10,447 nucleotides of DNA, taken from positions 1 to 10,447 of the IMG/VR virus record IMGVR_UViG_3300032516_006146; one strand, written 5' to 3'. Of this stretch, positions 1,897-7,579 are shown piece by piece (within the stretch, counting starts at the first letter, position 1; the number at the start of each line of letters is the position of its first letter). A program made the translations under genes and the position numbers. Below the pieces are notes generated by a model. It saw only the letters and a program-made list of their open reading frames with translations. It ran no database searches and had not been told where the DNA came from. Source of the DNA: a virus.

Positions 1897-1897
1897 T

Positions 1898-2050
1898 TTA
1901 TACCTTTGCTTCTATGCCTTTGATGTATCCACTCATTTTGATGCCGCGGAGATTCCTTGGTGTCTTGTTCCAATCACGGTAAACTTCTTTTTTGCGTTTG
2001 TTGGTGATTGATGATACTTGTCTCAATATTCCTGCTGTTTTCTCTCTCAT
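1898..2050 (-). CDS. Unannotated small basic protein, 50 aa (MREKTAGILRQVSSITNKRKKEVYRDWNKTPRNLRGIKMSGYIKGIEAKV)
   Basis: Found by manual translation; the ORF track does not list it. A strong AAGGAG Shine-Dalgarno site lies 6 nt upstream of the ATG. The ATG makes an ATGA overlap with the preceding gene's stop. Its TAA stop sits 1 nt before the gp62-like ATG, exactly filling the gap between the two genes. K/R-rich, suggesting nucleic-acid binding. Confidence 0.4.
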   Translation of the reverse strand: MREKTAGILRQVSSITNKRKKEVYRDWNKTPRNLRGIKMSGYIKGIEAKV

Positions 2051-2256
2051 GATTTTCTCCTTTTTATTGATTTTTCGAATTTTTGCCAGTTTATTATTAC
2101 AACTTCCTTGACCTGTTCATAATCTTCTATAAACTTGGTTATATTCATCAATTCAGGATAATCTGTTATTGGCTTTTCACGAACCACTACTGTATTACCG
2201 AATCTAATTGATCCGGATTTATTAAATTTATATGCTACAAAATATGATATTTTCAT
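2047..2256 (-). CDS. Hypothetical protein, 69 aa
   Basis: Makes ATGA overlaps with the genes on both sides. No family recognised. Confidence 0.4.
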   Translation of the reverse strand: MKISYFVAYKFNKSGSIRFGNTVVVREKPITDYPELMNITKFIEDYEQVKEVVIINWQKFEKSIKRRKS

Positions 2257-3212
2257 ACACTAATTCTTTCTTTTAATATTTCTGTTATCTTATCTTTATT
2301 ATAATAAGGAATTCTTATTAACTTAATTTTATATTTTTTGCAATATTTTGATTTTTTATGATCATTATTTTTCATGTTGTTATAATTATGACCAACATAG
2401 TGTTTTAAAAATGATTCATTAAAGTGTTGTGGTCCATCAAATTCTATACATATATTATAATCTGGTAGATAAAAATCAAAACGAAGTAAACCACCACCAA
2501 CACCAATTAATCCTGGGAAAGTTTTTTCTTTAATAAATATTATATTATTAATAATTAAATATTGTTTAATTAATCTTTTTCCATATGATTCATTACAAAC
2601 AGGACAACCACATTTAGTTGATAAATGAGTATTTGGTCTTTGTAAAAATTCTCCATGTTTTTTGCATATTATTATAATTTTATGTTTACTACTTTTATAA
2701 TTTACTTTACTATAATCATATTTGTTGCCATGAACTTTTTTAGCAAGTTCTATAAATTGCTTTGTAATATATGTATACAACATTTTATATTTAATAGACT
2801 TTTTAATTATTGAATTTAATGATTTAATTTTGCCACATTGTGGACAACCATGATTATATAAATGACAATTTGGTGTCTGTAAGAATTCGCCATGTTCTGA
2901 ACATATGATAATGATTTTTTTATATTCACCACAATATTCTATTTTTGAATAATCATATTTGTTGCCATGAATTAATCTGGCCTTTTCTATAAACCAAACA
3001 TTATTATGTAAATGTTTATTTTGGTTTTTAATTATTCCACATTTTGGGCATCCATGATTTCTTAAATGTATGTGTGGATCTTGTTTAAATTCTCCATGTA
3101 TTGAGCATATAATGATAATTTTTGTTTTTATATTCTTATATTCTATTTTTGAATAATCATATTTGTTGCCATGAATTAATCTGGCCTTTTCTATAAAATC
3201 AATTACATTCAT
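2253..3212 (-). CDS. Free-standing homing-endonuclease-like protein: three tandem ~75-aa zinc-ribbon repeats plus a C-terminal PD-(D/E)XK / DUF559 (Vsr-like) nuclease domain
   Basis: Three repeats of the pattern KA-L/V-HGNKYDYSK-I/V-xY...KIIIIC-x-HGEFxQxPxxHLxxxGCPxCG. The C-terminal LLRFDFYLPDYNICIEFDGPQHF matches the (R)xDFxLPxxxxxIExDGxQH signature of DUF559/Vsr-like nucleases. The gene is extremely AT-rich, roughly 10-15% GC in places. Its start makes an ATGA overlap with the glycosyltransferase stop. Confidence 0.55.
   Translation of the reverse strand: MNVIDFIEKARLIHGNKYDYSKIEYKNIKTKIIIICSIHGEFKQDPHIHLRNHGCPKCGIIKNQNKHLHNNVWFIEKARLIHGNKYDYSKIEYCGEYKKIIIICSEHGEFLQTPNCHLYNHGCPQCGKIKSLNSIIKKSIKYKMLYTYITKQFIELAKKVHGNKYDYSKVNYKSSKHKIIIICKKHGEFLQRPNTHLSTKCGCPVCNESYGKRLIKQYLIINNIIFIKEKTFPGLIGVGGGLLRFDFYLPDYNICIEFDGPQHFNESFLKHYVGHNYNNMKNNDHKKSKYCKKYKIKLIRIPYYNKDKITEILKERISV
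2937..2993. repeat. 57-bp perfect direct repeat, copy 1, inside the homing-endonuclease gene
   Basis: ttctatttttgaataatcatatttgttgccatgaattaatctggccttttctataaa is identical to 3141..3197. A third, diverged copy lies around 2708..2756 and shares aatcatatttgttgccatgaa. Confidence 0.9.
3141..3197. repeat. 57-bp perfect direct repeat, copy 2 (204 bp = 68 codons from copy 1)
   Basis: Identical in sequence to 2937..2993. It corresponds to repeat units 1 and 2 of the protein. Confidence 0.9.
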
Positions 3213-3961
3213 ACATTTATCTCTATAATATTTTTATTATCTTTGATAAATTGTTTATTAGTTAATGGAAATTTATATTTTTTATATTTATTTATAAATT
3301 TATCTCTGTTTGCATGCCACACCTTATCATGTTGTATGTTTCCCATAGATCGATGCTGAACCAATATGTCGGCGCATGCTACTTTATATCCTTTTTCTAA
3401 TACCTGCAAGCAAGTATCAAGATCATAAAAATGATATCCTTCATATGTTTTGTCATCAAATGATAGCTGATCTTCATTAAGAAACAAACTTCCTCTAATG
3501 AAAAAACATAGACCATCAACAGCAACTAAATCATCAAAAAATCCTACCGGTCCTTTAACAAGATGTCTTGCCCCACCTTCAGGATTTTCCTGAATTACAT
3601 GTCCTCTTAATTTGTCTGGGCTTGCATGCCACCAACCACCGGTATCCATAAGCATTGATGTACCGGCAACACCAAGCATACCAACATCTGGTTTAGATGC
3701 AAACAATAATAATGCTTTATCAGCAAATGAAGGATCGAGCAATTTTACATCTTCATGTATAAAAGCTATGACATCATCATGTTTCAATCCATCTTTAATA
3801 CATTGATTGATTCCTGCATTATATTTCAAAAATAATGATTCTTCAATGTCTGGTTTGGTGTTCGATACGAAGCAACAAGTAGCATTAAATTTTTGTAAAT
3901 AAGGATACAAATAATCATGTAATCTTTTATCATCCTTAACTGCTATAACGTAGAATATCAT
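3209..3961 (-). CDS. Putative glycosyltransferase (GT-A-like fold)
   Basis: A DxD-like IAFIHEDVKLLD motif. The C-terminal YHFYDLDTCLQVLEKGYKV resembles the GT2-type [W/Y]GxEDxDLxxRxxxxG motif. A GGWW segment is also present. Family assignment is tentative. AAGGGA Shine-Dalgarno site 5 nt upstream. Confidence 0.35.
   Translation of the reverse strand: MIFYVIAVKDDKRLHDYLYPYLQKFNATCCFVSNTKPDIEESLFLKYNAGINQCIKDGLKHDDVIAFIHEDVKLLDPSFADKALLLFASKPDVGMLGVAGTSMLMDTGGWWHASPDKLRGHVIQENPEGGARHLVKGPVGFFDDLVAVDGLCFFIRGSLFLNEDQLSFDDKTYEGYHFYDLDTCLQVLEKGYKVACADILVQHRSMGNIQHDKVWHANRDKFINKYKKYKFPLTNKQFIKDNKNIIEINV
3289..3296 (-). promoter_or_regulatory. T4-type late promoter consensus TATAAATA, 77 bp upstream of the homing-endonuclease start and inside the 3' end of the glycosyltransferase gene
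   Basis: Plus-strand tatttata reads TATAAATA on the minus strand. My manual scan of the window was not exhaustive, but this was the only exact octamer I found for minus-strand transcription. Confidence 0.3.
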
Positions 3962-3983
3962 ATTATCCCTTTTTAGTTAAAAG

Positions 3984-4016
3984 GGAGGACCGACACCCCA
4001 TCAGATCGATCCTCCC
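3984..4016 (-). terminator. Intrinsic terminator downstream of the MVP-like gene
   Basis: On the minus strand a 7-bp stem GGGAGGA ... TCCTCCC of six G/C pairs and one A-T pair, with a 19-nt loop, is immediately followed by TTTTAACTAAAAA. It sits between the MVP stop (4046) and the glycosyltransferase Shine-Dalgarno site. Confidence 0.5.
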
Positions 4017-4045
4017 TCAACAAGATCAAACCAAAGCACTATTAG

Positions 4046-6707: not shown

Positions 6708-6780
6708 AAGCGGGGGAAGGATTTGAACCTCCGACCTTCTGGTTATGAGCCAGCTAATCTACCAATTGATCTACCCCGCA
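6708..6780 (-). tRNA. tRNA with anticodon CAU (Met, or Ile2 if C34 is modified to lysidine). No encoded CCA. U1-U72 and G27-A43 mispairs as read.
   Basis: Minus strand reads TGCGGGGTAGATCAATTGGTAGATTAGCTGGCTCATAACCAGAAGGTCGGAGGTTCAAATCCTTCCCCCGCTT. Cloverleaf by hand: acceptor GCGGGG/CCCCGC (6 G-C pairs); U8; D-stem GATC/GATT with AATTGGTA loop (G18 G19 present); anticodon loop CUCAUAA (U33, A37); T-arm GGAGG-TTCAAAT-CCTTC. The 5' end abuts the stop codon of the upstream ORF. Confidence 0.7.
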
Positions 6781-6781
6781 A

Positions 6782-7063
6782 TTATTTGAATGATGGTGGT
6801 TCAGGAATCATTTTACCATCAAGATCTATGATTTTAGGTATTGGCAATTCTGACATTTTAATATCAGGATTGAACTGAGTACTGAAATTAAATACCGTAG
6901 TGCCTGGTTTTGGTAATCCATATTTGAAACCAGGGAGACTATAACTATCGTTTGCTAAAACCACACTATGATCACGACCTTCTGATGGTGGAACTGCTTT
7001 GAAATAAAGAAATCCCCATTCATGAATTTTGGTTTCATCGATGTCAATAACTATTCTGAACAT
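6782..7063 (-). CDS. Hypothetical protein, 93 aa
   Basis: ORF with an AAAGGAAT Shine-Dalgarno-like sequence upstream. Its stop codon is directly adjacent to the tRNA 5' end. No family recognised. Confidence 0.4.
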   Translation of the reverse strand: MFRIVIDIDETKIHEWGFLYFKAVPPSEGRDHSVVLANDSYSLPGFKYGLPKPGTTVFNFSTQFNPDIKMSELPIPKIIDLDGKMIPEPPSFK

Positions 7064-7147
7064 ATTATTCCTTTCTTTATGTTAAAGAAGTAGTAGTAAG
7101 TAACGCTACAATCAAATGTTAACAACAATCAAGAACAATCAACAAGG

Positions 7148-7257
7148 GGCTTTGTCTGTGAGCATCATTGACAACAAGTGAGTTTGTGCTCATATAAGAC
7201 AGCCACGATTTGTATCAGACTGGGTTTCGGCGGATACGTGAAACCACGATATACGCC
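7148..7257 (-). other. Structured intergenic element: two long imperfect hairpins (candidate small RNA, processing site or terminator pair)
   Basis: Hairpin A spans 7148..7204: ggct-ttgtctgtgagca ... tgctca-tataagac-agcc, with about 14 pairing positions and a 22-nt loop. Hairpin B spans 7229..7257: ggcggatacgtg-aaac-cacgatatacgcc, about 11 bp including the perfect cgtg/cacg core. Downstream on the minus strand come a TTGATTGTT x2 direct repeat and a TACTTACTACTACTTC tract, ahead of the next Shine-Dalgarno site. Confidence 0.4.
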
Positions 7258-7276
7258 TAGTTACTTACCAACTACC

Positions 7277-7570
7277 TCAAACAATTTCTGATGCAAGTTT
7301 TTCGTACTCGATGTTGATTTCAACCATCGTTTTTGAATTACTTGTTTTGATAGTCTTATCTATCCGGAAAAGAGCATTGTTGATATCAACTATTTTCTTA
7401 TCAACAACCTTGATGTCATAGGTAGGTTCGTCAACCCTTGTCTGTTCGGACCGATCGAAGTACCTTGAACGAGATGTGCCGCTATTTTTCAACTCATTGA
7501 GTTGATCACGCCGGGTTTTCAATGCTTTCTGCATTGCTAACAGTTCATTTACTGAAACTGATTCTGACAT
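7277..7570 (-). CDS. Hypothetical protein, 97 aa, probably helical/coiled-coil. It occupies the position where gp62 would be expected, immediately after gp44.
   Basis: Strong GGAGGA Shine-Dalgarno site 5 nt upstream. Starts 10 nt after the gp44 stop. No recognisable similarity to gp62. Confidence 0.45.
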   Translation of the reverse strand: MSESVSVNELLAMQKALKTRRDQLNELKNSGTSRSRYFDRSEQTRVDEPTYDIKVVDKKIVDINNALFRIDKTIKTSNSKTMVEINIEYEKLASEIV

Positions 7571-7579
7571 TATATCCTC

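Follow-up and report, generated by a model that had tools for sequence, protein, structure and literature searches.

A resident glycosyltransferase gene with a variable slot on either side, one of them holding a major vault protein homologue in the present genome, between the clamp-loader genes of an uncultured T4-like phage lineage

In phage T4, genes 45, 44 and 62 are contiguous, with 1 nt between 44 and 62. What separates the two clamp-loader genes in the IMG/VR virus record IMGVR_UViG_3300032516_006146, where the gp44 stop and the gp62 start lie 5,683 bp apart? The stretch analysed here (positions 1 to 10,447 of that record, 10,447 nt; hereafter the window) represents most of a 12,599-bp metagenomic contig (ENA ERZ27248201 k141_1497331, referred to as L003), in which a window position equals 12600 minus the contig position. 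An earlier note on this DNA had described the interval as a hypervariable, mosaic insertion hotspot occupied by one accessory island of ~5.7 kb, with a tRNA gene as a plausible integration or recombination anchor.

Our comparison with related loci indicates that the interval is most probably a composite hyperplastic region of an uncultured, deep-branching T4-like lineage and not one inserted island. The lineage set consists of the 12 distinct loci in which gp44 reaches a score of 219 bits or more with that of the window (about 38-52% identity where reported). In all 12 loci, the gene for a 227-aa protein (p227) is followed by gp44, a glycosyltransferase (GT) gene of the PF13712 family and gp62, usually then by a deoxynucleoside monophosphate (dNMP) kinase gene, and a GT gene is also present between gp44 and gp62 in 2 more distant loci. 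When 62 open reading frames (ORFs) located in this interval in 14 loci were clustered, the GT alone was universal, and its guanine-plus-cytosine (GC) content equals that of the backbone of its own genome in the seven loci checked. Because the GT is universal and has backbone GC while its flanks vary, the supposed island is a conserved resident GT gene with two independent variable slots, slot A between gp44 and GT and slot B between GT and gp62. The hypervariable mosaic character described in the earlier note was thus confirmed for the genes around the GT, but a single 5.7-kb island was not, the GT being fixed in 12 of 12 loci. The same note had named a gene content shared with relatives as the finding that would speak against it; such sharing was found for the GT alone and not for the remaining content.

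Every gene of the window is encoded on the minus strand. The gene list and coordinates previously given for the region between gp44 and gp62 were reproduced by ORF prediction, ARAGORN, Pfam and PHROG. The features are as follows, in the order in which they are read.

running off the window end, minus strand: gp45-like sliding clamp (a profile of five homologues matches T4 gp45 at E=1e-4)
9213-9692, minus strand: DUF5662 gene
8521-9204, minus strand: gene for the 227-aa protein (p227)
7580-8518, minus strand: gp44, clamp-loader large (AAA+) subunit, the upstream border (phrog_168, E=1.4e-78; Pfam AAA and Gp44_lid)
7277-7570, minus strand: 97-aa ORF, slot A
7064-7276: 213-nt non-coding spacer
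6782-7063, minus strand: 93-aa orphan ORF, slot A
6708-6780, minus strand: tRNA-Met(CAU), initiator-like (ARAGORN; Rfam 59.7 bits)
6650-6681, minus strand: promoter-like motif TTGACAGAAATTCAGGAAAATTATTTTTTATT, 5' of the major vault protein gene
6494-6649, minus strand: 5' leader of the major vault protein gene, with three predicted hairpins (fold of 6494-6707, z=-2.21)
4046-6493, minus strand: major vault protein (MVP) homologue of the bacterial/phage type, 815 aa, chief cargo in slot A
3981-4018, minus strand: terminator-like 16-bp hairpin with U tract, directly 3' of the MVP stop
3209-3961, minus strand: GT, PF13712, GT-A type (Pfam E=2.2e-23)
2253-3212, minus strand: free-standing homing-endonuclease-like gene, 319 aa, slot B
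2047-2256, minus strand: 69-aa orphan ORF (p69), slot B, overlapping its neighbour by 4 nt at either end
1898-2050, minus strand: 50-aa orphan ORF (p50), slot B, with its stop 1 nt before the gp62 start
1474-1896, minus strand: gp62, 140 aa, clamp-loader small subunit, the downstream border
between gp62 and the dNMP kinase gene, minus strand: ORFs of 70 and 63 aa
399-1076, minus strand: dNMP kinase

The resident glycosyltransferase and its two slots

Homologues of the GT were identified at this place in L006, L007, L009, L013, L016-L018, L028, L087, L096, L099, L101 and L103. Slot A, which is 3,618 bp in length in the window, is closed in L009, L013, L017 and L099, where gp44 directly abuts the GT gene, and reaches its maximum of 4,601 bp in L016. 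Slot B (1,312 bp in the window) is closed by abutment in L017, L018 and L103 and is largest in L007 (1,369 bp). L017 therefore represents the bare gp44-GT-gp62 arrangement with nothing else, and the gp44-gp62 interval within the lineage varies from 745 to 6,070 bp.

The second most widespread ORF family of the interval is a thioredoxin-like family (CxxC, ~95 aa) found in slot A of six loci. One further family is common to two loci, and all of the remaining ORFs are locus-specific; the six non-GT ORFs of the window have no counterpart in the 13 other loci clustered. The cargo of other loci includes PAPS-reductase/DUF3440, EctC-like cupin and ThyA-family genes in L016, a nucleoside deoxyribosyltransferase gene and an HNH gene in L006, and a KTI12-like kinase gene in L007. 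The thioredoxin-like genes, which are not present in the window, are located directly 3' of gp44, sometimes as a tandem duplicate (L018 10927-11486; L096 11160-11450; L101 1620-2175; L103 1740-2063; L028 2583-3245; L087 784-1488).

No tblastn match to the GT was detected in 50,697 deposited phage records. The gene sits in a nucleotide-metabolism and replication module, and in L016 a ThyA-family gene directly precedes it. Conceivably, the enzyme acts in the glycosylation of DNA bases.

The three nearest relatives (P0002, P0003 and P0122) are known from gene tables. The nearest of them, a JGI contig whose gp44 is 84% identical to that of the window, also contains a 97-aa gene after gp44, and this gene is followed by a gap of 538 nt, an ORF of 49 aa and a gene of which 290 aa are present before the contig ends. 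A search of a limited candidate list with the first 290 residues of the window MVP yielded no fragment of >54% identity, and the cut gene is probably not an orthologous MVP gene.

Identity of gp62 and the clamp-loader junction in other phages

The earlier interpretation had been made dependent on the ORF at 1474-1896 being gp62, and this assignment passed the profile searches by which it was to be judged. Among the PHROG families, the ORF falls into phrog_225 (clamp loader of DNA polymerase; E=8.7e-20), and a profile of 20 gp62 homologues matches the T4 gp62 structures 8uh7 and 3u60 at E=4e-17. PF16790 was matched by 18 of the 20 members of alignment A2, which comprises the window gp62 and 19 members found by phmmer (E from 1e-32 to about 1e-8). 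The window protein alone is divergent: it gave no PF16790 match at E<=0.01, and T4 gp62 was its top match among solved structures, but at E=0.16. On the strength of these profile matches, the ORF is a divergent but genuine gp62, for which a 4:1 complex with gp44 and the loading of gp45 would be predicted. With this ORF as a phmmer query, 69 of the first 95 loci were seen to have a homologue downstream of gp44, a number that later rose to 76 loci, and in all 76 loci that hold both genes, gp62 lies downstream of gp44 on the same strand.

These loci with gp44 relatives were gathered from assemblies, IMG/VR and JGI metagenomes, and the gap was measured wherever both genes were present. The two genes are adjacent (gap of <50 bp) in 25 of the 76 loci, whereas 51 of these environmental loci have something between them: the gap is 50-1,000 bp in 18 loci, 1-3 kb in 29 and >3 kb in 4. 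The largest gap (6,070 bp) belongs to L016, which is of the same lineage as the window. This distribution indicates that the gp44-gp62 junction is a widely used insertion site and that the window is not an extreme case. The statement that the genes are contiguous in T4 and most relatives is accurate for T4, but not for the environmental relatives, as the low count of 25 adjacent loci among 76, L016 and cyanophage ACG-2014d show. The last-mentioned phage, which provides the best gp44 match among deposited phages (36% identity), contains four genes, including a DNA methyltransferase gene, in the 1,416 bp between gp44 and gp62. No match to the window was obtained by megablast among the 50,697 phage records; in IMG/VR, a scan with a single protein yielded one distant locus only, and a metagenome scan reached 47% identity at most. 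The split of the clamp-loader pair is therefore not remarkable in itself and represents ordinary phage genome plasticity with one unusual passenger.

A gp44 relative (36% identity) was also observed in L002 (IMGVR_UViG_GVMAG-M-3300023174-206_000001), which has been binned as a giant-virus metagenome-assembled genome; the 9.6 kb that follow this gene yielded no gp62 homologue.

Cargo of the two slots

The unusual passenger is the MVP gene. The protein matches Pfam MVP_shoulder (PF11978) at residues 513-623 (E=1e-21) and one Vault_3 repeat (E=7e-10). As a single sequence, it aligns with solved structures over residues 424-714 only (E=1.5e-13), while a 40-sequence family profile matches rat MVP residues 465-813 (E=2e-30). 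An AlphaFold model based on the family alignment has a mean predicted local distance difference test (pLDDT) score of 65, with residues 212-313 and 383-449 below 50. Foldseek matched this model over its full length to the human, rabbit and rat vault-cage chains (E=1.8e-29) and, at about 1e-9, to crystal structures of the mouse R1-R7 repeats. Of a putative N-terminal array of repeat domains, only one is seen by Pfam; the Foldseek matches involve a model with low-pLDDT stretches. The model places a helix (the cap-helix) at 624-742, after the shoulder domain. Taken together, the matches and the model predict a shoulder (SPFH-like) domain followed by a long cap-helix, as the family requires. The shoulder of human MVP binds NAD+/ADP-ribose, and its basic pocket consists of R504, K506, R507 and R511 (PMC12280208). 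In a profile alignment, G-K-P-K of the window protein (K496, P497, K498) lies opposite human G-R-P-K, P497 and K498 being invariant in the family; the residues at the positions of human R507 and R511 are not basic.

MVP homologues number in thousands. Bacterial MVPs, among them those of Nannocystis, Polyangia, Cytophagales and Vulcanimicrobiota, show at most 48% identity over most of the protein, and the closest proteins (59-75% identity) form one branch of a neighbour-joining tree without support values. Four close homologues (59-74% identity) had a readable context, and all of them are located on phage-like contigs (19.6 kb, 11.8 kb, 345 kb and, with NUDIX and pilin-like genes, 5 kb), where their neighbours differ. 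In L013, a 56-kb T4-like contig of the same lineage, the gene for a 45%-identical MVP of another tree branch lies downstream of gp62 at a distance of ~2.8 kb. Between gp44 and gp62, an MVP gene is absent from all 13 other loci compared, and among the 50,697 deposited phage records a homologue was found in three huge-phage records only (462-735 kb). Published phage MVPs are limited to a 2023 preprint, which presented those of two gut Caudoviricetes as the first from viruses (10.1101/2023.11.10.566534). The window protein resembles the known phage and bacterial MVPs in its full length of ~810-820 aa, in its shoulder and cap-helix and in being closer to bacterial than to eukaryotic MVPs (10.1101/2023.11.10.566534, 10.1101/872010), as well as in having no TEP1 or PARP4 partner nearby. 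Unlike the two reported phages, which are unclassified gut Caudoviricetes, the window phage is environmental and T4-like, and its MVP belongs to a sub-branch found on phage-like contigs only.

The MVP gene is flanked by spacers of 214 nt on the tRNA side and 84 nt on the GT side. The 32-nt promoter-like motif in the former recurs just upstream of gp45 with four substitutions (28/32 identical). The two copies (TTGACAGAnAnTCAnGAAAAnTATTTTTTATT) are located at 6650-6681 of the window on the minus strand and at 1940-1971 of L003 on the plus strand, the latter outside the window; two copies are present on the 12.6-kb contig as against none in 200 shuffles, and no match was found in any related locus. 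The motif holds a TTGACA hexamer. A general sigma-70 scan was uninformative (53 sites versus 48 expected), and the T4 late promoter TATAAATA occurred once versus 1.7 expected. On the other side of the gene, the fold of 3962-4045, which includes the hairpin, has a free energy of -27.1 kcal/mol (z=-2.98). Comparable hairpins are present 3' of MVP in L011, L013 and L200 (three of the four other phage loci), so that a hairpin with a U tract is found in four of five loci overall; in L013, the MVP gene lies between an upstream TTGACA-N17-TATATT promoter and a downstream terminator hairpin. The MVP leader is not conserved upstream of the other phage MVP genes. The motif and the hairpin may act as promoter and terminator, and the MVP gene would then behave as a mobile single-gene cassette with promoter-like and terminator-like signals apparently of its own.

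Could the MVP gene have been exchanged by way of this motif? Promoter and stem-loop units called PeSLs flank variable ORFs in the hyperplastic regions of T4-like phages, and PeSL-flanked cassettes have been described for RB49/phi1, PST/T4 and nt-1/KVP40 (PMC4122927). The 32-nt motif upstream of both gp45 and MVP, and the promoter and terminator around the L013 MVP gene, speak for an exchange by recombination between motif copies. However, only two copies were seen, and the opposite cassette end and the remaining slot borders have none; the motif has no match in related loci, and the stem-loop, located 3' of MVP, does not form a pair with the promoter as in a PeSL. The genome is covered for 12.6 kb only. 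We consider this route unlikely.

In base composition, MVP (GC 42.6%, GC at third codon positions [GC3] 38%) and the endonuclease gene (GC 22.5%, GC3 12%) stand on either side of the backbone (33.5%) and the GT (31.6%). A swing from ~10% GC in the endonuclease to ~48% in MVP, as described previously, is correct for 100-bp windows only: the minimum of 11% is a single such window at the GT/endonuclease junction (3201-3300), the extremes in 200-bp windows inside the interval are 16% and 47%, and the gene means are those given above. In all five phage loci with MVP (L003, L011, L013, L015 and L200), the gene is 6-10 GC points above its own contig. Because the GC is elevated in every phage context, the excess belongs in part to the gene itself and does not prove that it arrived recently. 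As a weak sign of foreignness, it leaves the case for acquisition to rest on the comparative data.

What the protein might do in the phage is a matter of speculation. A full-length phage MVP, produced from a self-contained expression cassette, would form vault-like cages in the infected bacterium, which might sequester host molecules or package a phage small RNA derived from the adjoining spacer or tRNA; we regard this proposal as improbable at present. If it were true, the MVP genes of the sub-branch would be a fitness or counter-defence module passed around between large phages. Candidates for a vault-RNA partner were considered and rejected: no tRNA gene was present in three of the four other phage MVP loci (the scan covered all of them but L200), and the spacers 5' of MVP in four loci have no sequence or fold in common.

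Slot B contains the endonuclease-like gene, which overlaps the GT stop and the p69 start by 4 nt each. It matches phrog_559 (E=6e-63), phrog_9084 'homing endonuclease' (E=1e-25) and phrog_7140, and contains three tandem 171-nt internal repeats, which are DNA-binding modules, and a weak PD-(D/E)xK match at the C-terminus; with PADLOC defence-system models, it gave weak nuclease matches only. A second copy is present at 1-837 (plus strand) of L003, at the contig end outside the window and upstream of the dUTPase-gp45 region. The paralogues share 55% protein and ~71% DNA identity and have GC contents of 22.5% (window) and 25.9%. In the gene table of the nearest relative, a different gene is found where L003 has this second copy. 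The family occurs in 1,464 places in 831 deposited phage records, with up to 9 per genome, but in slot B of none of the relatives compared. Its sequence features fit the profile of a free-standing homing endonuclease gene, the product of which would be predicted to cleave alleles lacking the gene near its insertion site, and the paralogue on the contig, the up to 9 copies per genome and the GC of 22-26% suggest a selfish element.

In E. coli, the tRNA(CAU) gene of slot A is closest to the three clustered tRNA-Met genes that lie between mltA and amiC (matches at a median of 4 places per genome), which we take to be metZWV, the initiator genes. The GCGGGG/CCCCGC acceptor stem is common to both; there is a 1:72 mismatch (U.U) together with A11:U24, and two of the three G:C pairs of the anticodon stem are present, the third being replaced by U:A. 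By these features, it looks like a tRNA of the initiator (fMet) type.

This gene is central to the proposal that one event inserted the entire ~5.7 kb with the tRNA gene as the integration or recombination anchor. It does lie inside the interval, at the edge of the MVP cassette, and the Logan assembly of another run breaks exactly inside it. However, Pfam, PHROG, NCBIfam and PADLOC scans of the ORFs of the interval identified no integrase or recombinase family. A check for short direct repeats at the island borders, as the earlier note had suggested, revealed a longest repeat of 8 nt, which was equalled or beaten by 187 of 300 shuffles. None of five junction pairs (island, MVP cassette, endonuclease and slot borders) has a repeat above chance, an imperfect 21-nt family (D2), copies of which lie near both borders, does not exceed chance either, and no fragment or partial copy of the tRNA was found elsewhere. 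Moreover, the GT in the middle of the interval is an old resident of the lineage and already contradicts a single island. Just downstream of the dNMP kinase gene, L007 has an array of 22 tRNA genes (10246-14717) and L006 one of at least 4 at its contig end (6962-7669), so tRNA genes appear to be ordinary cargo in this lineage. For the Logan break there is a simpler explanation: an exact 33-mer of the tRNA is shared with an unrelated contig (63% GC), and such a match suffices to branch a k=31 assembly graph. The anchor role is thus not supported, and insertion as a single island is extremely unlikely. The contig of the window has a single tRNA gene, in a different place from the arrays of the relatives.

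The same break raises the question of whether the contig is a metagenomic assembly chimera of a phage backbone and foreign MVP-bearing DNA. The contig is a single short-read assembly of 12.6 kb, its GC shifts at the MVP gene, and the Logan contigs break at the tRNA. Against this, gp44 and MVP are found together on two contigs of 10-20 kb, and two Logan contigs (SRR9616645) carry gp44-p97-p93-tRNA and tRNA-MVP-GT at 100% identity with an overlap of 31 nt. The promoter-like motif, which is native to the phage, lies on the MVP side of the break, and on the same Logan contig MVP is followed by the lineage's own GT. The arrangement is unlikely to be an artefact, and a chimera of the kind described is scarcely credible.

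The remaining parts of slot A are a folded spacer and small ORFs. The 213-nt spacer has a minimum free energy of -57.3 kcal/mol (z=-2.99; 1 of 200 shuffles as good) and a closing long-range stem of ~17 bp. It contains no ORF of >=40 aa on either strand, and an Rfam scan at E<=1 found the tRNA only and no family for the spacer; neither it nor the other spacers have a nucleotide or translated homologue in any fetched locus. The structured RNA region proposed previously is thus favoured by the folding score but has neither an Rfam match nor a homologue in the fetched loci, and a structured RNA is possible. At 9693-9878, outside the interval, a GC-rich spacer folds no better than its shuffled versions (z=-1.17).

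Four ORFs of the interval are without family assignment. [quoted passage not shown] The 93-aa ORF also has a ribosome-binding site. The 93-aa, 69-aa and 50-aa ORFs have no match in Pfam, PHROG, NCBIfam or PADLOC, and no homologue of the 93-aa and 69-aa ORFs was found in the other fetched loci.

Assembly of the interval and its relation to known systems

How, then, might the interval have been built up? The backbone of the lineage is gp45 - p227 - gp44 - [slot A] - GT - [slot B] - gp62 - [slot C] - dNMP kinase. The GT may have become fixed between the clamp-loader genes early in the lineage, with the minimal gp44-GT-gp62 form persisting, and non-essential genes would have been gained and lost independently on either side of it. 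In the window, slot A (3.6 kb) holds the 97-aa gene, the possibly folded spacer, the 93-aa orphan, the initiator-type tRNA gene and the self-contained MVP cassette, and slot B (1.3 kb) a selfish multi-copy homing-endonuclease gene and two orphan ORFs. The cargo may have entered by illegitimate or short-homology recombination, by endonuclease-driven gene conversion with co-conversion of the flanks and possibly by exchange at promoter motifs.

The opposite direction of change, in which the large interval is ancestral and the relatives have lost genes with no gain here, has two points in its favour: direction is unreadable without a rooted phylogeny and close relatives, and the 97-aa gene is common to the window and its nearest relative. 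However, the six non-GT ORFs of the window are present in none of the 13 other loci, which carry unrelated cargo; the nearest homologues of MVP are in unrelated contexts; the search with the N-terminal part of MVP yielded no close fragment matching the cut gene of the nearest relative; and the endonuclease family is multi-copy and mobile in other phages. Loss alone is therefore a quite improbable explanation, and a composite region filled piece by piece is favoured.

Several points weigh against this composite reading. No insertion junction has been mapped, the sequence of events and their direction, by gain in this genome or by loss in others, are inferred, and the nearest relative is known from a gene table only. 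The contrast in GC says less about a recent transfer than one might suppose; some backbone genes (gp45 and gp62) also have high GC3. The 32-nt motif has no canonical -10 hexamer at standard spacing and was not called by the consensus scan. Finally, the strong hairpin between MVP and the GT-gp62 string leaves the transcription of the essential gp62 unexplained. From GT to the dNMP kinase gene, nine genes are tightly packed, with overlaps or spacers of <=4 nt, and gp62 would be translated as the fifth gene of a GT-endonuclease-p69-p50-gp62 string and not directly after gp44 as in T4. Because only ~25 nt lie between the hairpin and the GT start, which leaves no room for a promoter, transcription of the string must either read through the hairpin or start inside MVP.

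Among known systems, the hyperplastic regions of T4-like phages are similar in that variable, mostly orphan genes lie between core genes, their content differs among relatives and homing endonucleases are present. Unlike the described regions, that of the window lies inside the clamp-loader pair and is organized around a fixed GT. As in PeSL cassettes, a promoter-like motif and stem-loops are located beside variable genes, but in a spacer-against-spacer comparison none of the window's cassettes showed a repeated promoter and stem-loop unit at both ends. In the marine cyanomyovirus ACG-2014d, accessory genes also separate gp44 and gp62; in contrast to the window, that interval has no GT resident and is four times shorter, and there is no common gene content, the gp44 proteins being 36% identical.

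In lambdoid phages, Hendrix and colleagues described morons, single genes of atypical composition with their own promoter and terminator. The MVP unit (3981-6681) is comparable: it has the promoter-like motif upstream, the hairpin and U tract downstream and a distinct GC content, and relatives have no MVP there. It differs in belonging to a lytic-type T4-like phage, not a temperate one, and in that its motif copies one upstream of a core gene. The endonuclease gene resembles seg and mob, the free-standing homing endonuclease genes of T4, in its position between conserved genes with overlapping stop and start codons, its AT richness, its paralogues and the lack of the gene at the same site in relatives. 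Whereas the T4 enzymes are of the GIY-YIG type, or the HNH type of mob, that of the window consists of tandem DUF723/zinc-finger modules and a PD-(D/E)xK-like C-terminus. The window also has a tRNA gene beside foreign-looking DNA, as do tRNA-targeted integrative islands; unlike in those islands, there is no integrase, attachment-site repeat or truncated tRNA, and the tRNA gene is located inside the interval and not at its border.

What appears to be new is the fixed GT between the clamp-loader genes in a lineage without deposited phage genomes, together with the MVP cassette in a T4-like phage. The locus reveals a lineage of T4-like phages known from metagenomes only, whose gp44 shares no more than 36% identity with its counterpart in deposited phages and in which the tight gp44-gp62 coupling of T4 has been replaced for good by gp44-GT-gp62. 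It provides a clean example of two independent cargo slots beside a fixed gene, and thus a place to seek new accessory functions. In addition, a T4-like phage joins the very short list of phages with a vault-shell protein. The MVP genes form a phage-borne sub-branch and seem to travel as single-gene cassettes, which would make the function of prokaryotic and viral MVPs testable in a phage setting.

Three minor observations concern the upstream flank. The gp45 and gp44 genes are not contiguous in the window either. The 227-aa protein encoded at 8521-9204, which had no match in Pfam, PHROGs, NCBIfam or PADLOC, contains a CxxC...CxC motif and an acidic tail, and its gene lies directly upstream of gp44 throughout the lineage. 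The DUF5662 gene (9213-9692), located between p227 and gp45, was seen only in the window and in its nearest relative.

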